A stretch of 64,000 nucleotides of DNA from Oligoflexales bacterium (GCA_044360315.1 JBIKKO010000001.1:43377-107376), one strand, 5' to 3'. Positions 44,479 through 59,604 are shown, counted from the stretch's first letter. The notes: generated from the letters alone by a model not told the origin. Numbers and translations: made by a program.

Positions 44479-45975
44479 TCAGCCGTTCATAGATGCAATA
44501 AACTCTGCATTCGTCTTTGTCTTTTCCATTTTTTCCAACAAAAACTCCATCGCATCGACAGTGCTACGCGGTGCCAACAACTTCCGAAGAATCCACATAC
44601 GATTCAGGATATCACGAGGTAGCAACAAATCCTCTTTCCTCGTTCCAGACTTGTTGATGTCGATCGCAGGGAATACTCGCTTCTCGGCCAGTTTCCGATC
44701 TAAATTCAACTCCATGTTGCCAGTACCCTTGAATTCCTCGAAAATCACTTCGTCCATTCGAGAGCCTGTTTCAATTAGCGCCGTCGCAATGATGGTCAAT
44801 GAGCCACCATTTTCAATGTTTCGAGCGGCTCCAAAAAAGCGCTTGGGCTTATCAAGAGCGTTAGAATCCACACCACCGGAAAGAATCTTACCCGAGGGAG
44901 GAACAACCGAGTTATAGGCACGTGCTAAACGAGTGATTGAGTCCAGAAGAATAACCACATCGTTTCCGTGTTCAACAAGACGCTTCGCCTTTTCAATTAC
45001 CATCTCAGCAACCTGGACGTGACGTTGCGCAGGCTCATCAAACGTCGAACTGATGACCTCGCCTCTCACACTACGCTGCATATCGGTGACCTCTTCCGGG
45101 CGCTCATCGATCAGCAACACAATCAAAATCACTTCAGGGTGGTTTTTCGCAATCGCAGCTGCGATGTTTTGAAGGAGAACGGTCTTACCAGTCCGTGGCG
45201 GCGCCACAATGAGAGATCGCTGGCCTTTACCGATTGGCGCTAAAAGATCGATGATACGAGTGGCAAGATTCTGCGGCTCGTACTCCATCTTGAATTTCTC
45301 CATCGGATAGAGTGGCGTTAAGTTATCAAAGATAATCTTCTCAGCACTTTGGTCCGGAGATGTCCCATTAACTTTTTCAACCTTCAATAGCGCAAAATAG
45401 CGCTCTCCGTCCTTCGGTGGACGAATTTGACCCGAGACCGTGTCACCGGTTCGAAGATTAAACCTACGAATTTGACTCGGCGACACGTAAATATCGTCTG
45501 GACCCCAAAGGTAGTTATAATCAGGGGCGCGGAGGAAACCAAATCCATCAGGAAGCGTCTCCAAAACGCCCTCACCATAGACGACACCGCCTCGTTCCGA
45601 GAGGTTTTTAAGAATCGCAAACATGAGTTCATTCTTGCGCAAGTTGCTTGCGCCCTCGATCTCTAACTCACGAGCAATCTTGTTGAGGTCGTTGATGTGT
45701 CGATCTTTAAGCTGCTTAAGATTGATCTCACCTGCGATGGCATCCGCCAATGTTTTAGGCAGAGGTTTGGCTACGCCACCTGGAGCAACGGGTGCTGCCG
45801 CCTTGTCAACTGGCAATGTTTTTGCTTGACCCGCGACGACCGCCGGCTCTGGTTCAGCCACGGCTACTGCAGTCGCGGGCGGATCCTTGTGCATCTGGTG
45901 ATGGGGGCGGGCTGGTCTCGACGGTCGCTTTTTAGGAGCTGAATCGTCGCCGTTGTTGCCTTGCGTCATGGGCAA
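44479..45975 (-). CDS. rho: transcription termination factor Rho with a ~80-aa Pro/Ala-rich N-terminal extension
   Basis: Walker [19 protein letters not shown], and [39 protein letters not shown]. The canonical N-terminus ([23 protein letters not shown]) begins only around aa 85. Confidence 0.95.
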
Positions 45976-47963: not shown

Positions 47964-48458
47964 ATGACGCGCTACCCAACGAAAATGAAGACGATATGTA
48001 CGGCGATTTTGTTAGTTTCTGGAACAGCCACAATGGCCTTAGACCTTGACCTTGAGCTCAGAGTCACCGGTACAATCTCTGGCTCGCCACAGTGGCGTGA
48101 TCAAAGTGATCAAGTTATTAACTTCACCGAGCTTAGTTTTGCCTCAGGTTTACCCAAAGAACCGGATACCCACCGCGATTCAGCCGCGAACACGGTGAAG
48201 CTCGTGAACATGCGGACTGGTTACGCCAGTGTTGAAGTTACCGTTCCTAGCGGTTGCAAAATCGGCGAAACCAATGTCGACGGCCAACACGTCAAAGTAC
48301 TTGTTGCAGGAGCACCGAAGTCCAACTCCGAAATCATCTCCTTTAGTGAAGGAGTCCAATATCCCGTTGCGCTACGATTTGATGCCGCGGGTCGCTACGG
48401 AGACAAGATTGGTGACGTCCGTTGTACTCCCGGAAAACTTCGTTACAACTACATGTGA
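47964..48458 (+). CDS. secreted pilin-like protein, paralog 1 (family shared with 52013-52516 and the C-terminal half of 49233-50063)
   Basis: GGAGG 8 nt upstream. After the signal peptide comes an alternating strand LDLDLELRVTGTI. Conserved motifs P.W, GC.IG and RC..G.LRY.Y (PSGCKIGETNVDG...VRCTPGKLRYNYM). Confidence 0.5.
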   Translation: MTRYPTKMKTICTAILLVSGTATMALDLDLELRVTGTISGSPQWRDQSDQVINFTELSFASGLPKEPDTHRDSAANTVKLVNMRTGYASVEVTVPSGCKIGETNVDGQHVKVLVAGAPKSNSEIISFSEGVQYPVALRFDAAGRYGDKIGDVRCTPGKLRYNYM

Positions 48459-49219
48459 CAGTTCGATAGTTTCTGCAAAGACTTTGTCGACAACCACTGT
48501 ATGATCACTTCAAAGCAGGCATTGCTTGTGTCTTTAGGCGGGGCATAGCCTGCTTCTAGCGTCACGGTCTTGCGATATGGATCAATAATTTTATCACTCG
48601 CCAACCGAACAAAGCGCATCATCTTTTTGCTATCTTTGTCCATAATCTTTGCGGAAATTGACGCCACAGCAGGCATAGTCATGGTCTGCAAATCCAAATC
48701 AAAAACCGCAATTTTTTCTGTATCTGTCACGCGGGTTGAGAACTTTGGTGTAGCAATACTTACGGGATCTGCATTCAAGATATACAAGATCCCAGGCTGA
48801 TAACTAAAATCAAAGGCCACACTGTTGGATCTCGAGTCTCCCGCTACAATCGGCGAAAATACAGGCTTAAATAGCGCATAACGTTTGGCGGCCTGTATCA
48901 TCTGCACATAAGCTTCAACGCTTCCAGAACTTTGGATCTCAAATTTTTTCGGGTTTATCTCATTGGAAATCTTCAGATTGAAGTACCGTGTGCACTCGTC
49001 ACTCTTAATAGCTACGCCATCAACTTCGCACTCATAAGCCACGTCCATCGTCATTGGGTTCTTTAACTGGTTATGCACATTGAATGAAGCCGTCTTTTCC
49101 TGCTTCATTAAATACTGCGACATTGGCATAATCACAGCCGAGCCTTGGGCTACTGCCCGTGTTTCAAAGCCTAGAAGGATATAATACATTAAAAGACTAA
49201 GACTGCCCGATAAGCGCAT
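48449..49219 (-). CDS. periplasmic chaperone-like protein (two beta-sandwich-sized halves)
   Basis: GAGGAG RBS and signal peptide. Its size is similar to PapD-like chaperones. The N-terminal pattern AVIMPMSQYLMKQEKTASFNVHNQLKNPMTMDV resembles the first chaperone strand region. Last gene of the operon. The assignment is inferential. Confidence 0.35.
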   Translation of the reverse strand: MRLSGSLSLLMYYILLGFETRAVAQGSAVIMPMSQYLMKQEKTASFNVHNQLKNPMTMDVAYECEVDGVAIKSDECTRYFNLKISNEINPKKFEIQSSGSVEAYVQMIQAAKRYALFKPVFSPIVAGDSRSNSVAFDFSYQPGILYILNADPVSIATPKFSTRVTDTEKIAVFDLDLQTMTMPAVASISAKIMDKDSKKMMRFVRLASDKIIDPYRKTVTLEAGYAPPKDTSNACFEVIIQWLSTKSLQKLSNCHM

Positions 49220-49232
49220 TGCGACATCTCCT

Positions 49233-50063
49233 CTAATATGAATAGGTTAATGAACCCCTGCTATCACACCGAATCAAACCAAACTTATCTCCCATGCGCG
49301 CCTCAGACTTAATCCGAAGTGCCAACGTCACAGAGGATGCGTGCGCTATACTTAGAGTCCCACCATCAGGAATGATCAGTGAGCCCGACTTCAAAACAAG
49401 AGCACCGCGACTAATCGCATGCCCTCCGATTTTACAACCGTCCGGAGCTAAATACATGGTTGATGCGGGATAAGAAACAGCATCAACCAATCGCACCGTC
49501 ACCGCACGCGAGTCTACATCCACATCAGCCTTTTTACCTGCGATCAAATCATCAAATGAAAAGTAAACCTGCGATAGCTCTTGGCCCTGGGATGATTGCC
49601 ATTTAGGTAGCCGACGGACGTAGCCGACCACTTGAAATTCAACGATAACGGTACCCGTATTGAGTTCACGTAGCTCTGCGCTTGTGCAACTCAAAACACC
49701 TTCCGTGTCCGATGGAGTGCGAATACTCACGTCGACAGGAAATCCAGACTGGAGAAGATCAACTGAAGAAAACATACTCTTTCCAGCGATCTTAAGTTCC
49801 AACCGATCCATGCGACGCCCAGACACTAAGCAACTCGGCATCTCTAAAACAAAATTTGCACTCGTGGACTCACCCCGAAACGAATACTCAAGATTAAAAC
49901 GTCTAGACGTAGTCTGACCCGCAAAGACGTCTTGAATATCAAGACTGACTTTATCGATCGACGCACCCGTCGATGTGACCATCTTAGTGACGCCAACGGC
50001 TCGATTCGCCAAGCTCATCATAAGCACAGCCATCAATAATGTTGTTAACGTTTCAGCTCGCAT
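49233..50063 (-). CDS. two-domain secreted protein: unique N-terminal domain plus C-terminal pilin-like domain (tip-adhesin-like architecture)
   Basis: ATG at 50063 gives signal peptide MRAETLTTLLMAVLMMSLA; the track's upstream start is GTG. The C-terminal half (LPKWQSS...APDGCKIGGHAISRG...IRCDSRGSLTYSY) aligns with the two small paralogs. Confidence 0.5.
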   Translation of the reverse strand: MRAETLTTLLMAVLMMSLANRAVGVTKMVTSTGASIDKVSLDIQDVFAGQTTSRRFNLEYSFRGESTSANFVLEMPSCLVSGRRMDRLELKIAGKSMFSSVDLLQSGFPVDVSIRTPSDTEGVLSCTSAELRELNTGTVIVEFQVVGYVRRLPKWQSSQGQELSQVYFSFDDLIAGKKADVDVDSRAVTVRLVDAVSYPASTMYLAPDGCKIGGHAISRGALVLKSGSLIIPDGGTLSIAHASSVTLALRIKSEARMGDKFGLIRCDSRGSLTYSY

Positions 50064-50067
50064 CACG

Positions 50068-51990
50068 TCACTGACCTCGACCACGCAATATCACTTTGAT
50101 CCGCCCTCGATCCTTAATTGCACCATCCACAGCCTCATGGTCAAAACCACCAAACTGATAAGAAAAGGGCAACAGACTTTCATTAATTAATAGTTTAACA
50201 TTAGAACGTCTTGATACATAAACATAATTATTTGCATATCGACAGCCATCACAACTCACTATAGACTCACTTAACTCACTAATATGATTATTCAACGCAA
50301 CAGCCTCGAACGAGCCATTGGGAGCTTGGACGACGAAGTCAACAAGCATCTCACGATGATCACTCAACGTTAACGTGACGGATTTTTCCTGCCATACTTC
50401 AGACACAAACACCCCTTGTCGCACCTCTTCAGTCCCGTTTACAAAGCGTAGCTCATAGTCTCCGCAGCATTTGGCTTCAAAAAATTCTGTAACGCCATCA
50501 CCCTGGAGCTGTCTACTTACCAACAACTGTCCGTTTTGTAACAGCTCCATATTGCCATCAACCACTGCGGCTCCTGGGGCATTAGATCGCACATTAACTT
50601 TGATCAGACGCTTGACCAGTTTCTGCGATATCGACCTCAAGTTGTCGGAGAAAAAATACCGTAGATTACCAATAAAGGAAGATTGTCGAACTTTTTTACC
50701 CTCGAATGAAGCACCAACCCCAGCCACGATCTGATCGCCGTCATAGCGAACGCCCAAGGTATTAGACCATAATTTTCGTTGTAAGATACTTGCTGACTGA
50801 TCCCAAAAATAAGTCCATCGATCACCCCTCACCTCGATATGCCCACCCGTTGACTCAGAAAACGTATCGGGCAAACCATCCTTTGCAAACTGACGAAAAC
50901 GACTAACAAAAGACTTCCGCTGTAACGTTCGACTTATCTTCACCGACAGGCGCTGACGACCAAAGGCTTCCGCGTTGAATCCTGTTGTAATCATATGCGG
51001 CAATAAGCCATACTCCAAGGATAACTCGGTACGCGCGTACGTGAAAAAAGACTTAAGAATCCATTGATCGATGAGACAGCCTTTATGGTGAGGACAGCTG
51101 AGACTATTAAAGTTTGCCAAGCGCAAGACGTTAAACGGTCGAAACGTTCCTTCAGCTCGAACGTTATAACGACCCTCCGTGGATCCCAATTCATCCTTCC
51201 TCCATTGATACCTAGTTACAATCCCTAGGCCGAACGACCCTGCACTGACTGACATGTATCGGTCAAACGTGTGTGAGACCTTCCCAGTCGATGCCTCCTC
51301 ACGACCATATCCAAGGCCAAGGGGCTGCGGCGTCCGAAACCATGTGATGTCTTGCCATCCGTCTCGATCCATGTAAATGGACCGGGAGTGACTCAAACTA
51401 AATCCAAGCAAGCCGCCGTTAAATCGAAACAACATGTCATTCTGCTTCGGACCAATGGTGCGTTGATGTCCGTATCCTAAATAGTGCTCCCCAAATTGAT
51501 GTAGGACATCAGCCGAGTCAGAGGCAATAATGGCACCAAAATTATTCTGATGGGACTTCCTTACGGTTAACTGCAATTGGTCCAGACTCCGATCACTAAT
51601 CTCAACGTCATAAGACCTGACGTCTGCACCTCGATGAAACACTGACAATCCTACGGATGAATTTGGCCGTAACACTTTGGACCCTATGTCGCTTAGGGAG
51701 TGACGGGATCGACTTTTAAACTCCAAAGAATACACAAGCGATCGATCCGGGCAGTCAATCAGCAGTGTGGCTGATCGATCCGAAACACCAAGTGCTATAA
51801 CCCGCAGTTGGCTATTTGGCTCGATCTCAAATTTATAGTTCGACGTATCATCAAGAAACGCAAGACACGACGAATCCGGCAAAGAAACGTTTTGTTCGGT
51901 GTCATCTGTGTAAAACGTAAGAGTCTTAAAATCCTCAGCCAGTAGGGCAATGGGGACTAAAAGAAGCCCAATTGAGAAAACTAGCCTCAT
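50068..51990 (-). CDS. usher-like large secreted/outer-membrane protein
   Basis: Internal ATG at 51990 gives signal peptide MRLVFSIGLLLVPIALLA. An N-terminal ~100-aa domain, a central ~330-aa Gly/aromatic-rich beta region, then a carboxypeptidase-regulatory-like beta-sandwich (IKVNVRSNAPGAAVVDGNMELLQNGQ...GDYELRFVNG). The assignment rests on context and architecture only. Confidence 0.35.
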   Translation of the reverse strand: MRLVFSIGLLLVPIALLAEDFKTLTFYTDDTEQNVSLPDSSCLAFLDDTSNYKFEIEPNSQLRVIALGVSDRSATLLIDCPDRSLVYSLEFKSRSRHSLSDIGSKVLRPNSSVGLSVFHRGADVRSYDVEISDRSLDQLQLTVRKSHQNNFGAIIASDSADVLHQFGEHYLGYGHQRTIGPKQNDMLFRFNGGLLGFSLSHSRSIYMDRDGWQDITWFRTPQPLGLGYGREEASTGKVSHTFDRYMSVSAGSFGLGIVTRYQWRKDELGSTEGRYNVRAEGTFRPFNVLRLANFNSLSCPHHKGCLIDQWILKSFFTYARTELSLEYGLLPHMITTGFNAEAFGRQRLSVKISRTLQRKSFVSRFRQFAKDGLPDTFSESTGGHIEVRGDRWTYFWDQSASILQRKLWSNTLGVRYDGDQIVAGVGASFEGKKVRQSSFIGNLRYFFSDNLRSISQKLVKRLIKVNVRSNAPGAAVVDGNMELLQNGQLLVSRQLQGDGVTEFFEAKCCGDYELRFVNGTEEVRQGVFVSEVWQEKSVTLTLSDHREMLVDFVVQAPNGSFEAVALNNHISELSESIVSCDGCRYANNYVYVSRRSNVKLLINESLLPFSYQFGGFDHEAVDGAIKDRGRIKVILRGRGQ

Positions 51991-52012
51991 AGGCGGTCCT
52001 AAAATCGACCAA

Positions 52013-52516
52013 TCAATCGTAGGTATACCGCAAACGACCGGGGGTCTGGCAGACCACCGCACCACTGAGATGTGCATAGCCTCCTATGGCCGAAAAACGG
52101 ATATAAAAGTCGTGTAAAACCCCAGTTCTGAGGGGAATCATTCCATCTGTATAATACTGAAGTCCGTGAACAAAGTAAACATGTCCATCTGCAACGCGTT
52201 GATCGCCAATGAAGCACTCCTTCGGTCTACGCATCTCAATTGAAACATTCGTAATGACACCATTTATATCCAACATTGCCTTGCGGATATCAGAATCCAC
52301 ATTCCTAAACCGATCGATCGTATTTGAGATCCGATTGAAGTTAAAACTAAGATTGTCGATCACGTCTTTATTCTCGTTACGCCAGACAGGCGCTGGACGA
52401 ATCATACCGCCGACATCAAGACGCAAGTCGATACTGTCAGCCCATGCAGCAGAATTAATAAAAAGCGTAATCGACGCGAGGACACCGATAGGGATCTGTT
52501 TAAATTTACTCACCAT
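52013..52516 (-). CDS. secreted pilin-like protein, paralog 2
   Basis: After the signal peptide comes the alternating strand SIDLRLDVGGMI. It shares the family motifs of 47964-48458 (PAPVWRNENKDVI, PKECFIGDQRVADG, VVCQTPGRLRYTYD). Confidence 0.5.
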   Translation of the reverse strand: MVSKFKQIPIGVLASITLFINSAAWADSIDLRLDVGGMIRPAPVWRNENKDVIDNLSFNFNRISNTIDRFRNVDSDIRKAMLDINGVITNVSIEMRRPKECFIGDQRVADGHVYFVHGLQYYTDGMIPLRTGVLHDFYIRFSAIGGYAHLSGAVVCQTPGRLRYTYD

Positions 52517-52540
52517 GATCTTGCCCCCTAGAAGATACCT

Positions 52541-53284
52541 TCAAGCACAGGCACGCGACGCATTTAAAAGATCAAGGAACTCATGTAGTGTTTGCAAAGG
52601 AAGCTGACTAAATTCAAGCCCCAATTGGACTCTCCCCACTCCCTCATCTGCATTTTGCTTCTCGGTCCAGCGTAAGCGACCATAGCCATCTAAATGGAGT
52701 GTCTTGTCGCTTTTCTTCGGAATAGAAAAACGAATCTCATCCCCTGCCGTCCAGTCCTCACATGAGCGTTCTAAAACAATCTTCATCCCCTTTGGGCTTA
52801 GGTCGCAAATATTTCCATGTAGTAACCCAGATGTACCGAGCTTTTTCAGTAAACAAGGTACTTGTACCGTATTCCGGATGCGCCCAGGACCATATCCCTG
52901 CTTTCTTGCATCCAGAAATTTATCAAGGGCTGTGATGATTCTAGCTACATTTGGCAAACCTGAAATCACAGCGTAAACAAGCTCTTCAACCATCAAATCC
53001 ACATGATCAACATGACTAGCATTCACCAAAAAAACGGGGCGCGCTTTGGCAACACTACGAATCTTCTGTAATAAAAATACCGCCTTCATTTTCCTTTGCT
53101 CGCAATACTGTCCATCGATCAGTATTGCCACTGGCTTTGATGAAATGATGTCGTCAATCAAACGAGCCTTGTTCTTGGAGTAAACAATGTTATAACCGCT
53201 AGACTTCGCCTTCTCCGACTCTTCGCTTGAAAACTCGGTATTGGAGTAAAAAAGTATATTTTGAACATTCTCGATGGAAGACAC
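52541..53284 (-). CDS. degenerate receiver-like domain fused to a PilZ domain (GTG start)
   Basis: The N-terminal ~125 aa have a REC-like alternation but lack the acidic pair (ILFYSNTEF; AILIDGQ). The C-terminus has DLSPKGMKIV (DxSxxG) and the beta-barrel pattern of PilZ. The RxxxR motif is degenerate (GRIRNT). Confidence 0.65.
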   Translation of the reverse strand: MSSIENVQNILFYSNTEFSSEESEKAKSSGYNIVYSKNKARLIDDIISSKPVAILIDGQYCEQRKMKAVFLLQKIRSVAKARPVFLVNASHVDHVDLMVEELVYAVISGLPNVARIITALDKFLDARKQGYGPGRIRNTVQVPCLLKKLGTSGLLHGNICDLSPKGMKIVLERSCEDWTAGDEIRFSIPKKSDKTLHLDGYGRLRWTEKQNADEGVGRVQLGLEFSQLPLQTLHEFLDLLNASRACA

Positions 53285-53796
53285 TGGTGCACCCCCCCGG
53301 TTCGCCCGCGCCGCTTCCAGGCGACACTCACATAAGAATTATTCCTACTCATCATCATGAAATGCTGCATCAATCGGGTCAACCCCCAGCCAATCAACCT
53401 GACTAACTATGAAAAAATCTCTCGCTACGTAGGCGCCAGAGACTGGTGAATTGGCGATGCCTAAGAGTCAGCAACATTTGATTTTATGCCTCTGAATAAT
53501 AATTTTACAAAGGGCAAGAAAATTCTCATCATGACCGCTGGGTCACACATAATTTATCTTTATGAATATCAAGACAAACTCGCCGCACTAGGTAAAATCG
53601 ATCCAGGAATAAAGACAAGTTTCTACATTTTCACGTGTGAATCTAGCCATTCAGAGCCCACTGCCAGTGTTTTCTTTGGAAAATCCAAAAGAATTCCATT
53701 GCGTGTAAACGCTATCGTCATCGCATTGACGTGAACGATACCTAATGAGGTGACAACTTTCGCCGATAAAGCCTGTACTTGAAAAGGAGTCAGTCT

Positions 53797-54843
53797 ATGC
53801 GCTCTGAAATACAACATCAGAAAGACGACAACATCATGACTGAGGATCGTCTCCGTAGGCATCTATTTTCAAAACCTAAAGCAAAATTTTGGGGCTTTGA
53901 TGAAGCGAACCTGACCATTGGGTTGGAAGTCGAATACTTTATCGCAAAAATTTCAGGGTCAAAATTTCGACTTGCGACGAAGGATGACTATATTCAAGTC
54001 ACAAGCATTCTAAAGGAGCGTTTTAACTACATCGACCAAAACCTGCTTGATCAGCCAGGGCGTCTAAGTAAAGATACAGAGTCTGGCTTTATTGCAATTA
54101 AGCCAGATTTTGCATGGCACATTCTAGAGATTTCGTTTCCACCAAGACAGAATTTGGACCAATTACGTGACATCATCACAACCGTTTTCACGGAGGTTGA
54201 CACCGCACTATCAGAGCTTCATTTGGAAAGACTAGATCTAAGCTGCTTACCCAATACCCCCAATGACATTGATTTCGTTGCCCTTGATCGACTCAGGGAT
54301 ATATCGACAACATTTCGACCAAAGTCTCTTACAAATCCCACTCAAGATCCAAATTTCCCTGCTTATATCGCCGCCACGCATATTCACCTCAACGCTGGCT
54401 CTGAAGATATACTAAAGCACATGCCTCAACTATTCGCACTAGACCCTTTGATTAGTAAGAAGTTTACAAGAGCCAACGAATTTAACGGCCGATTTTATGA
54501 AAATGCCCGTACACGGATGTATCGCGATACGTTGGGAGACGACTACCTCCTCCACACTTATCCCAAGGATCCGGCATACGATTTGGCCTCATTGGTTAAG
54601 CTGATGAATAATTCTCCCAAGCTCTTTCCATCCGATCCTTTTTTTCCAGTTAGAGATATGTCGTACATAAGGATAACGCGGTTTGGAACGCTCGAATTCA
54701 GATCATGTTGCTCATTTAAATCGGTCAATACACTATTAAAAATCGCAGAGTGTCGCATTGCGCAGCTTCTTGCCGCTACGGCCATTGACACACATAGACT
54801 AGTTACACTACTTGGTGATGATTATCAGGAGAAGCCTGCGTGA
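53797..54843 (+). CDS. GCS2/YbdK-like carboxylate-amine ligase
   Basis: I prefer the ATG at 53797, with AAAGGAG 7 nt upstream, over the TTG track start. Motifs IGLEVEYFI, ILEISFPP, ATHIHLN, RTRMYR and GTLEFRSCCS follow the order of glutamate-cysteine ligase family 2 motifs. Confidence 0.6.
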   Translation: MRSEIQHQKDDNIMTEDRLRRHLFSKPKAKFWGFDEANLTIGLEVEYFIAKISGSKFRLATKDDYIQVTSILKERFNYIDQNLLDQPGRLSKDTESGFIAIKPDFAWHILEISFPPRQNLDQLRDIITTVFTEVDTALSELHLERLDLSCLPNTPNDIDFVALDRLRDISTTFRPKSLTNPTQDPNFPAYIAATHIHLNAGSEDILKHMPQLFALDPLISKKFTRANEFNGRFYENARTRMYRDTLGDDYLLHTYPKDPAYDLASLVKLMNNSPKLFPSDPFFPVRDMSYIRITRFGTLEFRSCCSFKSVNTLLKIAECRIAQLLAATAIDTHRLVTLLGDDYQEKPA

Positions 54844-57698
54844 ATGTCGCGGCCGAGAAAAATGTAAGAAATGTATGTACTGCCATCTTTCTATTTTCGG
54901 CGGTTCTATACATCCTTTCTGGCTTAATAACACATTTAAAGCTAACCACACTTGAAGCTTCCAAGATTAATTTAAGACAAATTGAAACTAACTGCACAAG
55001 CGACATATGTTCGGCTCGGTGGACCTTCATTCCAGATTCGCGATTTATTCTACTCGGGCAAATTCTTCGAACACATGAACTAATCGATACAACTTCTGGA
55101 ACATCTTTGGCCCCGGTTAACCGGGTCAAAGGCACCATTTCAGACAGTTGGCTCCGGCTACAGGTGTACGAGGTTAAACCCGGTAACGTGTATGAGGTGC
55201 GCGCCTCCAAACCATCAAGCGCGAAACTTGGATTTTTTGTCGGCATACTTCCTCGTCAAACCAATAATATGGGGATTCTTAGTGTACCAGAGCTCGGCCA
55301 AACGATAACAAGCCTTTGCCTACTATTAACCCTAACAACATTATGCATCATTATTTCAGCCAATCTTCTGTCACTCAGCCGCCAATTCGCATTGACGCCA
55401 GAAAAGAGAAGTCAGATTGTAGCGGCTATTATAGCATCCTTGTTAATTGCACTCTCAGCTCAAATCAGCTCTGGAGTCTTCGATTCACTATTCCCTGAGG
55501 GTGACTCTCGAAATCGGCTGCTTCGAACCTTCTTCCTTGCAGGGTCGATTGTATTTGCAGCCCGAAACAGACTGCATTTGCTTGGAAAGACAAGCAGAGC
55601 GCCAATGTTTTTTTACGTATCGATAATTTTTTTGGGATCCTACCTAGCATGGCCATTATTACGACAAGGAACATACTGGGCCTTCACAGTCGGGACCGTC
55701 TCGGTGCTCGGTGCGATCCAGCTATTTCGGAATCGTGAGATATTTCTTGGAATATTTTGGCTTTCAGGCATCATTGACGCTTTACGAATTCTGGGACACC
55801 TCTCGATTGGAGACTATCCACCAATATATGTCAACATTATTTTTGCGCTAGTTACACTTGGCATGGCTGCGGGCAAAGCAGGTGGATTCACAACCATCGC
55901 TCTCGCAGGTGGTATGTTCCACCGCCTGAGAAGAGACGTTCTTATTGAGTCTATTAAACGACGACTAAGTGAAACGAAAAACATCGATAGTTCAGCAAAG
56001 ATCTTTGCGCTAAAACCGGTAATGCCAATGATAGCAGACTTTCTTCAGGCACAACGAATAGCCCTGACCATTAACCTCCCGCTCGGGCGACCTATTACAC
56101 AGATTCATGATAACCATTTGGAGTCCGACATCTGTTTTGATGACGGGACCATTCCGGGCGCCGTTACAATGCGCACAATTCTCTATGGTGATAATATTTT
56201 TTTTGAATCTTTTTCAGACTACGCAACACGACTTGGCCTTGATTCAAACCCAAATTTGATATCAGCAAAATATTTCTGCACAATCCCAATACGAGTCAAC
56301 AAAAGCGTAGTCGGAACTCTGATGCTTACAAAATTTTGCGATTCAGTTATTGAAAAAAAATTAGCTTCAGGTGACCGGTTAAATGAAGAACGGCAAAATA
56401 TTGACGCTGTAGTAGTTGCACTGGAAAGTTGTATTTCTGATCTAATTGTTCAAAACCTCGACACATCCGTAAATTTATCAAAAACGTTACACAAAAGACT
56501 TCACGAGGGATTATCAAAATGTAGTAGCTTCTCAGACTTCGTCGCAATGTATGCTCAGCGGATCGGTGAAATCTGTGATAGTGGCGTGATAATACATACT
56601 CGTGTCGAAAACTTGGGAGTAGCCGTGACACATTTCGGCCTGCCCAACAGCGCATGGGATTTCTTGTGCCATAATCCACTCAATCTAGATCCACTATCCG
56701 CATCACCAGTTGGTCCAACTATCGTGGCATTCGTTGAGTCTCGAAGTAGCTATGTAAAAAAAGTTCGCGAAATTTCACATCAGCTTCACCATAAAACGAT
56801 TGCCTTGTTTGATATGATCGGAGCCGAAAGTCTTGCAGCGATACCCTTAGTCTCTGATTCAAGAGTATTCGTGGTCACATTATTCAGGTCTGGTGACACA
56901 GGCGCTACGGATCCAGCCGTTGTTCAGATAGTCGAGTCCACAGAAGCACTTTTTATAGCGGCTCTAGAAATCATGAGCCAACGAACCTCCGTTGTTGCTC
57001 TCGGTGAACTCACAAGTAGACTTATTGGTGACGCGGAAATAAGAACAAAAATTGTTGAGGCGGCAAAAACTAAAACCTTACCTACAACGATAGGAAGCCC
57101 CAGGTCATCGCTATTACTCCTGTTCGATTTGGTCGGGAGTTCTGACCTGACTAAAGATACCGAACTCAAGGCACGGGCATACGGAGTTTTCTACGACTCT
57201 GTAAACCGGATGGCCCAGGATTTGTTTCAAGGAACAATTCGGAAGACCATTGGTGACGCTGTCATTATTACATGGGACGGTCACATCACTGGTCCCTCAA
57301 CCGATCCAAAATTCCTGCCTAAGCTATTCTCTTTAGCTAACTATGCAGACCAGATTGCAAATGAAATTGGTTGCCGGGGGGCACGAGCACTTCTGCATCA
57401 TGGTAACTATTTTCTTGGTTTAGTTGGTACCGAGACTTTTGGTCAAATCGATGTCATCGGAACAGGAATAGATGAGGTATGCAAAATGGAAGGGCTTATG
57501 AAGCACCTTGATATTGACGGTAAACCAGCAAAAATAGCAATCTCCGAAAGGGCTGTCCAATATTTGGAGCCCGTGTTTACGTTAGATTCCAGTCTGAAGT
57601 ATTTTATCGATTTACAAGATAAAGGTTTGTCAAAATCCAAAATTAGATTTGCATCTGCAACGTTAAAAACCCTAAAGGCGGACTCTAATGTCGCATGA
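54840..57698 (+). CDS. 7TM receptor (7TMR-DISM-like) with GAF-like middle region and a divergent class III nucleotidyl cyclase domain
   Basis: N-terminal anchor plus a ~130-aa extracytoplasmic domain, ~7 TM helices (aa 150-370), and a ~350-aa alpha/beta region. The C-terminus carries LLLLFDLVGSSDL...IRKTIGDAVIITW...LLHHGNYFLGLVG...IDVIGTGIDEVCKMEG. A GTG start overlaps the ligase stop by 4 nt. Confidence 0.65.
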   Translation: MNVAAEKNVRNVCTAIFLFSAVLYILSGLITHLKLTTLEASKINLRQIETNCTSDICSARWTFIPDSRFILLGQILRTHELIDTTSGTSLAPVNRVKGTISDSWLRLQVYEVKPGNVYEVRASKPSSAKLGFFVGILPRQTNNMGILSVPELGQTITSLCLLLTLTTLCIIISANLLSLSRQFALTPEKRSQIVAAIIASLLIALSAQISSGVFDSLFPEGDSRNRLLRTFFLAGSIVFAARNRLHLLGKTSRAPMFFYVSIIFLGSYLAWPLLRQGTYWAFTVGTVSVLGAIQLFRNREIFLGIFWLSGIIDALRILGHLSIGDYPPIYVNIIFALVTLGMAAGKAGGFTTIALAGGMFHRLRRDVLIESIKRRLSETKNIDSSAKIFALKPVMPMIADFLQAQRIALTINLPLGRPITQIHDNHLESDICFDDGTIPGAVTMRTILYGDNIFFESFSDYATRLGLDSNPNLISAKYFCTIPIRVNKSVVGTLMLTKFCDSVIEKKLASGDRLNEERQNIDAVVVALESCISDLIVQNLDTSVNLSKTLHKRLHEGLSKCSSFSDFVAMYAQRIGEICDSGVIIHTRVENLGVAVTHFGLPNSAWDFLCHNPLNLDPLSASPVGPTIVAFVESRSSYVKKVREISHQLHHKTIALFDMIGAESLAAIPLVSDSRVFVVTLFRSGDTGATDPAVVQIVESTEALFIAALEIMSQRTSVVALGELTSRLIGDAEIRTKIVEAAKTKTLPTTIGSPRSSLLLLFDLVGSSDLTKDTELKARAYGVFYDSVNRMAQDLFQGTIRKTIGDAVIITWDGHITGPSTDPKFLPKLFSLANYADQIANEIGCRGARALLHHGNYFLGLVGTETFGQIDVIGTGIDEVCKMEGLMKHLDIDGKPAKIAISERAVQYLEPVFTLDSSLKYFIDLQDKGLSKSKIRFASATLKTLKADSNVA

Positions 57699-59604
57699 TT
57701 CGATAAAATTACAGTTCAATCCAAAACCGCGCGTGATCTGCAAATCACGCGTGATCGCTGGAATTCTTAGCGAAATGGAGGCCGCTGAGGCTACAATATT
57801 GATTCGATCGTCAAACACAAATAATAGCATACCTTTCAAAATGAATTGTGATTTTAGACTACCATTTGAAGAATCAACTATCCGCCTCTCTGGAGAGGCG
57901 ATTAAGGCGGGCACCTATCAAGCAACAGTATTGTTTGCAGGCCAGAGAATCCTTTTCGAAATTCATGTAAATGATCAATCAGGCATCTGCCAATTCCCGA
58001 GAAAAATAGATATTATTGATCTTAGACAGAGTAAGCGCAGAACGTTCGGTCCAGAGTCCCAAACCGCCGAGATTTTTTCAAACCATGTGGTAATTTTTGC
58101 CGTGCCGGTTGATCTCAGTCTAAATTCACTTGCGTTAGTGTCAGCTGTCTCGGATCCGCCATTGCGCATTGGGGAGCAAGTAGCTGTAAGAATTCGCGGA
58201 GGAGTCGATTCTAAGGATGTATTTTCCTCAGAAATGGAAGTGAAAGATGTTGATCGTTCTTCCGCAACAACCCGAATACTTCTTGGAATGATCCAACCAA
58301 AATCTCGCGACGTCGAGGCAAACTATAGGAGACTGGAGCGAAAGGCATTAGCCAACATATCCTTACAAATTGTGCCTATGGATCATAGTATTGGCGAACC
58401 GTTGACAGTTCAAGTAAAAGACATTTCACTAACGGGTCTAATGATTGAGTGCGATGATAGTCCAAAAGTAGCCTGGCTGACCCCAGGACTGCACATAAAG
58501 TTAGATACCGGCGTCGTTCACGCAACTGTAATGTGGCGTGATGGACAAAAAGCGGGGTTGAGGCTTGATGCGTTGGATGAATCCAGAACGTTATCAAGCT
58601 GGTTTGATGTTCTTACGCGCCTGATCCCAGCGAACTCAATCCATCACTCTCAGGTGGATGATCTAGTTAATTTGTTCACGGAGTCTGGATTACTCAAGGG
58701 ATCCAGACGAAAGGTTTACGGGACACGACCGGGAAAGTTTCTGCCGCCGGAGACGGTTACTGGAAACCCTCTTTTATATCATCGATTTGCCTCTCATATA
58801 GAGGGCGGCATAATCGCAAGTCAGCTAAGCATGGTTCGTTTAACAGATGAGTTTTGGTGCATCCAAGAAGGAAGTCATAACGGGGAAACTTCAGCGCTTT
58901 CGTATGATGAAATTGCTATAAGAATATTCAAGATTGCTGAAAACCTAGCAAAGGGATCCCTTTTAGCTCCTCGTTTTTTTGGAGGGTTAATACATGGATC
59001 CGTTAAGTCATCTGTAAACATCATGGAAAAAATGCTTCTAAAAACCTCAAATTATAGATACGAGGCGTTTCATTTATCATTGACAGCGCAATCCTTTGTT
59101 CAAGAGCGAAAACTTTCTGATCTTAGACTAGCTGATATAAGAATGATGCCTGCTGAGAAACGAAGACAGGTTGCTAACTCATTTGACGCGACGCTTTTTG
59201 AGATCTTCTCAGGATTAAATGGATCACACCCGAGATTAAATTCAGAACTTAGTAAGCTTGGCCCATCGCATCACGCCAAAACCTTTGCTATTTCTCTGAA
59301 CAATTCTTTTTTGGGACTGGCTTACAGGCTTTCTAGTTATTACACGCTTAGCAGCACGGGCGTTATAAATAGCCTGTTTTTTGTAATTAAAGAAGGAATT
59401 GATCCAGATGTAGTTTACTGTGGTATCAATCAGCTTCAAGAAAGCGGGCTGATGCGCGGTACAGACGATATTGTTTTGATAATGGATAAAACTTCAGAGA
59501 CGATAGGATGTACCAATGATACATGGTCCAAAGAACTCAACTCATCATTTAAAAATTTGAAACCGTTTGCGTTATACGTTATCGATGCGCTGCTAGGTGT
59601 CTAA
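57688..59604 (+). CDS. tandem PilZ-domain protein with an unassigned ~330-aa C-terminal domain
   Basis: PilZ 1 has RQSKRR...DLSLNSL (second motif degenerate). PilZ 2 has RRLER...DISLTGLMI (both motifs canonical). 11-nt overlap with the cyclase gene. Confidence 0.65.
   Translation: MSHDSIKLQFNPKPRVICKSRVIAGILSEMEAAEATILIRSSNTNNSIPFKMNCDFRLPFEESTIRLSGEAIKAGTYQATVLFAGQRILFEIHVNDQSGICQFPRKIDIIDLRQSKRRTFGPESQTAEIFSNHVVIFAVPVDLSLNSLALVSAVSDPPLRIGEQVAVRIRGGVDSKDVFSSEMEVKDVDRSSATTRILLGMIQPKSRDVEANYRRLERKALANISLQIVPMDHSIGEPLTVQVKDISLTGLMIECDDSPKVAWLTPGLHIKLDTGVVHATVMWRDGQKAGLRLDALDESRTLSSWFDVLTRLIPANSIHHSQVDDLVNLFTESGLLKGSRRKVYGTRPGKFLPPETVTGNPLLYHRFASHIEGGIIASQLSMVRLTDEFWCIQEGSHNGETSALSYDEIAIRIFKIAENLAKGSLLAPRFFGGLIHGSVKSSVNIMEKMLLKTSNYRYEAFHLSLTAQSFVQERKLSDLRLADIRMMPAEKRRQVANSFDATLFEIFSGLNGSHPRLNSELSKLGPSHHAKTFAISLNNSFLGLAYRLSSYYTLSSTGVINSLFFVIKEGIDPDVVYCGINQLQESGLMRGTDDIVLIMDKTSETIGCTNDTWSKELNSSFKNLKPFALYVIDALLGV

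Follow-up and report, generated by a model that had tools for sequence, protein, structure and literature searches.

We analyzed a cluster of six genes at positions 47964-53284 of a 64,000-nt stretch of DNA from an Oligoflexales bacterium (GCA_044360315.1; the whole stretch is hereafter called the window). An earlier sequence-only reading had described these genes as a packed operon, with a ribosome-binding site before each gene and a convergent paralog at one end, that encodes a chaperone-usher (CU)-type or CU-analogous fiber system. The six open reading frames (ORFs), the gaps between them, and the Shine-Dalgarno-like elements were all found in that arrangement, and we refer to the genes and their products as A to F:

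47964-48458, plus strand: A, 164 aa, secreted subunit paralog, convergent with B
48449-49219, minus strand: B, 256 aa, chaperone-like periplasmic protein made of two Ig-like domains
49233-50063, minus strand: C, 276 aa from an ATG start, two-domain secreted protein
50068-51990, minus strand: D, 640 aa, usher-like outer-membrane protein
52013-52516, minus strand: E, 167 aa, secreted pilin-like subunit, the first structural gene
52541-53284, minus strand: F, 247 aa, PilZ-domain protein, the first gene of the operon

As read from the sequence, the gaps on the minus strand measure 24 nt (F-E), 22 nt (E-D), 4 nt (D-C), and 13 nt (C-B), and a purine-rich Shine-Dalgarno-like element precedes every start (GGGGG, AGGA, GAGG, or AGGAG, with GGAGGA for A). 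Upstream GTG starts would lengthen C to 277 or 283 aa. The longest ORF for D is 669 aa (50068-52077, with its ATG at 52077) and overlaps E by 65 nt; we prefer the start at 51990, which gives 640 aa, because of its AGGA element, the signal peptide that follows immediately, the gene calls, and the fit to homologs. Proteins A-E are predicted to be Sec-exported, their signal peptides having been judged by inspection; that of E ends in AWA. A and B are convergent and overlap by 10 nt (48449-48458). Their 3' overlap, of 4-10 nt, is kept in all close relatives, for example at 8747-8753 in L004 and 3608-3611 in L008, two of the related loci described below. Promoter and terminator scans returned no more sites than were found in shuffled sequence, and because no terminator-like site lies between A and B, the transcript ends of these two genes would be mutually antisense.

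Three protein families and their gene neighborhoods

Searches with Pfam and NCBIfam at E≤1 gave no match for A, B, C, D, or E and recognized the PilZ protein F alone, and phmmer searches against PDB sequences returned nothing for B or D. The exact A-E proteins are known solely from metagenome-derived records, in which they are labelled 'hypothetical protein' throughout. By these comparisons, the five structural proteins are outside every described protein family. Word-index protein searches, which are limited by sensitivity so that absence is not implied, found no relatives of D and, with a profile of the three paralogs, recovered the window's own proteins only. A scan of species-representative genome contigs with D alone found no relatives; a scan of such genomes with a seven-sequence alignment of B found two Oligoflexales metagenome-assembled genomes (phylum Bdellovibrionota).

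A single query made by concatenating the mature forms of D, B, and A was run exhaustively with phmmer against 1.84 billion representative proteins and retrieved 146 relatives, which fall into three classes according to the part of the query matched. The D-like class comprises ~35 proteins, whose full-length members are mostly 630-720 aa, with 803 aa at one locus. The B-like class comprises ~27 proteins of 243-275 aa, and the A-like class ~84 proteins, mostly of 155-170 aa, together with multi-domain versions of 260-370 aa. The ratio of usher-like to chaperone-like to subunit-like proteins is therefore roughly 1:1:3. One protein with six 'B-like' stretches (P0132, 1571 aa) was set aside as a false positive, being an MBG_2 repeat protein.

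Family hidden Markov models (HMMs) located the three families together in the window and at six loci (L001, L004, L005, L006, L008, and L009), as adjacent genes wherever the flanking sequence suffices, so that subunit-, chaperone-, and usher-like genes share one locus. The gene order of L004, an Oligoflexales metagenome-assembled genome, is that of the window: PilZ, E-like, D-like, C-like, and B-like genes, and then an A-like gene that converges on the last of them and overlaps it. L005 keeps this order from the E-like gene onward on a contig that stops before the PilZ position, and L008 and L009 keep it as far as their contigs extend, with the convergent overlap also present. In the distant L006, whose B-like protein is only 25% identical, the cluster is rearranged and includes five subunit genes: the D-like gene stands beside one of the A-like genes, after which come the B-like gene and the other four A-like genes. 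This conservation of gene content without conservation of gene order points to a functional module, and the retention of the features of the operon across many metagenomic relatives is far beyond what chance would produce. Our literature search found no paper connecting CU systems with Oligoflexia or Bdellovibrionota.

Two of the related loci show peculiarities of their own. The divergent D-like protein of L006 (4881-7292, minus strand) has 803 aa, 160 more than D of the window, and contains a CarboxypepD_reg domain; it also matches the subunit family weakly (E=4.7e-5), and some members may carry an extra domain. In L007 (4720-8978), a long-read metagenome contig, the D-like and subunit-like genes are split into many short ORFs, which probably reflect frameshift assembly errors rather than pseudogenes. 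Elsewhere in the window, a Rho homolog (44479-45975, minus strand), whose domains in the L001 gene calls are Rho_N, Rho_RNA_bind, and ATP-synt_ab, has a Pro/Ala-rich N-terminal extension of ~90 residues ahead of its conserved part.

Predicted folds of B and D

The following features of B and D are taken from conservation and from AlphaFold2 models, with strands assigned by DSSP:

48791..48820, minus strand: candidate G1 donor-strand motif of B, V134-x-F136-x-F138-x-Y140-Q-P142-G143
51715..51930, minus strand: N-terminal periplasmic β-sandwich of D (residues 21-92; pLDDT 73-84)
50653..51660, minus strand: β-barrel region of D (residues 111-446), ~22 antiparallel strands of 8-14 residues each (pLDDT mostly >90)
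50326..50610, minus strand: transthyretin-like (CarboxypepD_reg-type) β-sandwich of D (residues 461-555)
50080..50310, minus strand: second C-terminal β-sandwich of D (residues 561-637; pLDDT 85-92)

The model of B, built from 26 sequences (pLDDT 91.8, pTM 0.81), consists of two all-β domains at residues 28-147 and 159-252, the two-Ig-domain architecture of PapD-like chaperones. Among the 50 top Foldseek matches of this model in the PDB, 44 are CU chaperones (E 7e-8 to 3e-6, target-normalised TM 0.46-0.54), and they come from all three CU classes: CfaA of the alternative class, which is the best (4y2o_A at 6.9e-8 and 4ncd at 1e-7); FimC, PapD, Caf1M, SafB, DraB, CupB2, and FaeE of the classical class; and CsuC of the archaic class. 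The suggestion that the 256-aa protein is a two-domain Ig-like chaperone is thus borne out at the level of a high-confidence model.

A further possible resemblance to CU chaperones concerns the candidate donor strand. Among the 26 sequences, hydrophobic residues occupy positions V134, F136, F138, and Y140 in 96-100% of cases, and P142 never varies. Within the protein, confidence drops only at residues ~121-140 (pLDDT 72-75), and the unbound model assigns no regular strand to residues ~125-142; we infer that this segment resembles the F1-G1 loop and donor strand of an unbound chaperone. Two conserved basic residues, K118 in domain 1 (22 of 26 sequences) and the nearly invariant R216 in domain 2, are candidate anchors as judged by sequence only. 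No conserved basic residue was found at positions 27-38 or 133-148, where the classical A1 and G1 anchors would lie; in Caf1M these are Arg20 (strand A1) and Lys139 (strand G1) (PMC4654587).

The model of D, built from 27 sequences (pLDDT 85.3, pTM 0.62), has an N-terminal domain, a large barrel, and two C-terminal β-sandwiches, which is the architecture of ushers. The N-terminal domain has a conserved Cys pair (C42/C80) and a conserved P..C...LDD..N motif. Connections between the barrel strands are 2-7 residues long, except for one of 20 residues (355-376). In Foldseek searches of the PDB, the six best matches are FimD, from 4.5e-9 (3rfz_E) to 1.9e-7, and PapC follows at 1e-6 (7lhg_C); the alignments span ~760 columns with ushers as compared with ~600 with TonB-dependent receptors. 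For the domain that follows the barrel, CarboxypepD_reg (PF13620) matches 19 of the 27 D-family members (best E=3.8e-9), and the D family profile matched only transthyretin-like domains among PDB sequences, namely those of NOMO2 and the SdrD B domains.

From these results it is safe to state that D is modelled as a large outer-membrane barrel protein whose domains are ordered as in ushers and which lacks the usher plug. The sequence-only reading had taken the 640-aa protein for an usher-like protein, and the outcome that would have contradicted it, a fold lacking a membrane barrel, was not seen. Its remark that D is shorter than classical ushers also holds, as the protein is compact.

Subunit motifs and the PilZ protein

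The two small secreted proteins are paralogous to each other and to the C-terminal half of C: BLASTP aligns A with E at 31% identity (E=3e-19), A with the C-terminal half of C at 33% (E=6e-16), and E with C at 20% (E=2e-5), and the subunit family HMM matches E at 3.5e-46 and C at 2.1e-35, in the latter over residues 135-277. The motifs that the earlier reading had seen to recur in the same order in these proteins proved to be family-wide in 62 homologs. Their positions in the window are:

52400-52438, minus strand: donor-like strand of E, DSIDLRLDVGGMI
48039-48077, plus strand: donor-like strand of A
48411-48452, plus strand: C-terminal GxVxCxxGxLxYxY motif of A
49617-49649, minus strand: strand at the domain junction of C, VIVEFQVVGYV

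In the strand at the mature N-terminus, which follows the pattern ΦxΦxΦxGxΦ, the fraction of hydrophobic residues among the 62 sequences is 0.78, 0.92, 1.00, 0.94, and 0.89 at positions 28, 30, 32, 34, and 38. The alternating-hydrophobic strand expected of donor-strand subunits is in this way present as a pattern of residues only. G36, C98, G150, C154, and G157 are invariant, and P42, W44, Y161, and Y163 are nearly so. The C-terminus reads G150-x-V-x-C-x-x-G157-x-L-x-Y-x-Y, with an invariant Gly 14 residues before the end and with Tyr or Phe as the last residue in 54 of the 62 subunits. We considered whether the small proteins could be 8-strand barrels, which is unlikely: they are poor in aromatic residues (in A, Y 3.7%, F 2.4%, and W 0.6%) and have an invariant Cys pair, and the loss of YxY from internal tandem copies is atypical for such barrels.

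Protein C was previously interpreted as a two-domain tip adhesin, an assignment that needs revision. Its N-terminal half (49650-50063) contains MPSCLVSG and GVLSCTSAELREL, degenerate echoes of the subunit motifs, and in several C-like homologs the subunit HMM matches the N-terminal domain a second time, weakly and from a point past the N-terminal strand (independent E-values of 4.5e-6 in P0142, 1e-4 in P0120, 2e-4 in P0140, and 7e-4 in P0085). These echoes and second matches suggest that C is a duplicated subunit rather than a foreign adhesin domain joined to a pilin, its N-terminal half probably being a degenerate version of the subunit domain in which the N-terminal strand is missing. The strand at the junction could form a hairpin that completes the preceding domain or, just as well, begin the domain that comes after it. 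Tandem arrangement goes further in P0100, a metagenomic protein of 367 aa with three subunit domains joined by linkers of 5-6 residues, in which YxY is missing from the ends of the internal domains.

F, which heads the operon, has a PilZ domain at residues 139-240 (PF07238, E=2.8e-9), and no domain was assigned to its N-terminal ~130 aa. Its ortholog in L004 lies in the same position, is 59% identical, and is also a PilZ protein, whereas no PilZ gene was seen beside the distant L006 cluster, so the PilZ linkage may be clade-specific. Matches of F to designer PPR proteins in the PDB were dismissed as spurious. A second PilZ protein of 638 aa (57688-59604, plus strand; PF07238, E=2.1e-8) is encoded in the window 4.4 kb from the F gene; between the two PilZ genes lie 53779-54843 (354 aa) and 54840-57698 (952 aa), whose products have no Pfam match.

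Proposed assembly model, alternatives, and known systems

We propose that the operon encodes a CU-type fiber assembly system made from three undescribed families, with a compact, plugless usher that carries a transthyretin-like domain. The results support the original suggestion of a CU-type or CU-analogous system, and the predicted folds of B and D, the clustering of the genes, and the subunit motifs make the proposal the probable explanation. In this system, the chaperone B would capture the subunits E, A, and C in the periplasm, where its V-x-F-x-F-x-Y strand is probably laid against the C-terminal G-x-L-x-Y-x-Y strand of the subunit and the terminal carboxylate of the subunit may be held by conserved basic residues of B, for which K118 and R216 are candidates. 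The usher D would receive the chaperone-subunit complexes and thread the fiber outwards, and by donor-strand exchange the Φ-x-Φ-x-Φ-x-G-x-Φ strand of each incoming subunit would replace the chaperone strand and thereby polymerise the subunits. Because the barrel of D has no plug, a terminal domain may gate the pore, and we speculate that the transthyretin-like domain is one candidate for this role. By analogy with MrkH, the PilZ protein F probably couples assembly or expression to cyclic di-GMP (c-di-GMP).

Several observations weigh against this proposal. The Pfam models PapD_N/PapD_C, Usher/PapC_N/PapC_C, and Fimbrial have zero matches at E≤1 among 26 B-like, 27 D-like, and 62 subunit members, and SCPU (PF05229) touches one of the 62 subunits at E=0.087 and none of the remainder, in agreement with the earlier remark that the subunits match neither Fimbrial nor SCPU patterns. 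When the alignments of the three families were compared by hhalign with E. coli K-12 profiles of 7 chaperones, 6 ushers, and 15 pilins, all probabilities were <2% after trimming of signal peptides. The fold matches of B have modest TM-scores of about 0.4-0.5 with an rmsd of ~9 Å or more, and its top 50 include non-chaperones: the Vpr fibril (rank 1, TM 0.31), RbmA, and WxLIP. Those of D have TM-scores of only ~0.3, again with an rmsd of ~9 Å or more, and TonB-dependent receptors and LptD come close behind the ushers, from 2.7e-7. The list of DSSP elements holds no plug-sized insertion in the barrel of D, and barrel closure and domain placement were read from DSSP strings, not from coordinates. 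The donor-like strand recurs where the two domains of C meet and again between the tandem domains of P0100, and may be each domain's first strand. Finally, PilZ receptors of c-di-GMP have the motifs RxxxR and D/NxSxxG; F has the second as DLSPKG, and its upstream arginine motif is GRIRN, not canonical RxxxR.

The negative hhalign result is no argument against membership among CU systems, because a control between the classical and alternative classes was equally negative: the Ecp proteins reached 0.5% for EcpB/EcpE, 3.4% for EcpC, and 0.2% for EcpA. This accords with the little sequence homology that CU classes are known to share (PMC4654587). An apparent higher hhalign value, a probability of 54% for the subunits, was a signal-peptide artefact that was gone after trimming. 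In the PilZ protein of L004, the upstream motif is RSERVR, which is not canonical RxxxR either.

Among the competing explanations, the one that best survives is a CU-analogous exporter without donor-strand polymerisation, in which B would chaperone complete β-sandwiches and D would export them as monomeric or tandem adhesins or as a coat, the N-terminal strand belonging to the subunit's own fold. We regard it as unlikely. The missing sequence homology to CU components, the missing plug in D, and the presence of the 'donor' strand at the internal junctions of C and P0100, as would be the case for an ordinary first strand, fit this explanation. It does not account well for the PapD-like two-domain fold of B, which is a signature of donor-strand chaperoning, for the invariant Gly in the alternating N-terminal strand and the strict C-terminal aromatic, which are seen in donor-strand systems (PMC4654587), or for the several paralogous subunit genes at each locus, which are typical of hetero-polymeric pili.

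It is also improbable, we think, that the system is an ordinary but highly diverged member of the archaic (σ, Csu/CupE-type) class without a branch of its own. The likenesses to archaic systems such as Csu of A. baumannii and CupE of P. aeruginosa are considerable: both have several ~150-aa subunits with invariant cysteines, a two-domain subunit, an outer-membrane usher, and a periplasmic chaperone of two Ig domains and ~230 aa in mature form, and CsuC is among the fold matches of B. The archaic class is the most widespread (PMC4654587) and occurs outside Proteobacteria, and the one subunit that grazes SCPU fits an archaic origin. Moreover, the last subunit residue is aromatic, as in CsuA/B, which ends in Phe152 and whose terminal carboxylate is anchored in the cleft of the chaperone by a single residue of domain 1 and two of domain 2 (PMC4654587), and the conserved basic residues in both domains of B would suit such a two-domain anchor; in CsuC the anchors are Arg89, Arg174, and Tyr196, to which K118 and R216 of B may or may not be equivalent. 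Against membership of this class, no family member apart from that one subunit is matched by the SCPU, PapD, or Usher models, the family profiles of B and A matched no PDB sequence and missed CsuC, CsuA/B, and CsuE even at E≤10, and B matches the three CU classes about equally. The disulfide spacing of the subunits differs from the archaic one, and D, at 640 aa, is much below the ~800 residues of classical ushers, lacks the plug insertion, and carries the transthyretin-like CarboxypepD_reg domain.

Least probable of all is that the cluster builds no fiber, D being a TonB-receptor- or LptD-like barrel, B an RbmA/WxLIP-like tandem-Ig protein, and the small proteins accessory components of the outer membrane or periplasm whose YxY serves as a BAM β-signal. 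LptD and the TonB-dependent receptors, which are 22-strand barrels, do match D at 1e-7 to 1e-5, near the ushers, RbmA, WxLIP, and the Vpr fibril are among the matches of B, and a terminal aromatic in an alternating strand also resembles the β-signal of outer-membrane proteins, but Plug (PF07715) and TonB_dep_Rec (PF00593) match none of the 27 D-family members, for which reason we reject a TonB-dependent receptor, D has a ~70-aa N-terminal β-sandwich and two more β-sandwiches past its barrel as ushers do, CU chaperones outscore RbmA and WxLIP on B by TM-score, and the small proteins are aromatic-poor, share the Cys pair, and drop YxY from their internal tandem copies.

Returning to the proposed CU-type system, a bolder version of it, which we offer tentatively and consider doubtful, is that it represents a fourth lineage of donor-strand pili, either split early from the three known classes or assembled independently from Ig-like and barrel parts. 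Such a lineage would combine a ~22-strand plugless usher gated by the C-terminal transthyretin-like domain, subunits that are also fused as tandem domains, and direct coupling to c-di-GMP via PilZ.

CU pili are the main adhesive fibers of Gram-negative bacteria, and genome surveys rely on Pfam usher and chaperone models to find them. Since the three co-occurring families are invisible to these models, pili in Oligoflexia and other environmental lineages would be being missed if the proposal is right. A compact plugless usher with a transthyretin-like domain would reveal a minimal usher and an alternative solution to gating, and a new pilin family, its disulfide different and its last residue aromatic, would broaden the sample from which the origin of donor-strand assembly can be studied. 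In a relative of the Bdellovibrionota, surface fibers controlled by c-di-GMP would be plausible tools for attachment to surfaces or prey.

With the alternative class (CFA/I, Ecp) the system shares the best-scoring chaperone match of B, CfaA, and the circumstance that Ecp too lacks detectable sequence similarity to classical components; it differs in having no sequence similarity to EcpB, EcpC, or EcpA, in its subunit motifs, and in the size of the usher, EcpC having 841 aa. The barrels of FimD and PapC have 24 strands, as compared with ~22 for D by DSSP; classical ushers contain a plug, which D lacks, and those of E. coli K-12 are 826-878 aa long as compared with 640 aa. The PapD-type basic anchors in the first strand and in G1 are not conserved in B. 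FimD and PapC are the best fold matches of D, those of B include FimC and PapD, and the subunits share with classical Fim subunits the alternating-hydrophobic N-terminal strand with its Gly and the Gly 14 residues from the C-terminus. The E. coli K-12 pilins of the fim, sfm, elf, yad, yeh, and yra operons have this same strand and Gly together with a penultimate Tyr, whereas in the subunits described here the Tyr comes last.

The regulatory gene has a counterpart as well. MrkH, a small PilZ protein of ~240 aa, is the c-di-GMP-dependent activator of the Klebsiella mrk operon for type 3 fimbriae, a CU-type fimbrial operon beside which it is encoded (PMC3161979). F resembles it in being a small PilZ protein coded beside the proposed CU-type genes, and differs from it in being co-oriented with the structural genes as the first gene of the operon, in its N-terminal part, to which no domain was assigned, and in its non-canonical RxxxR.

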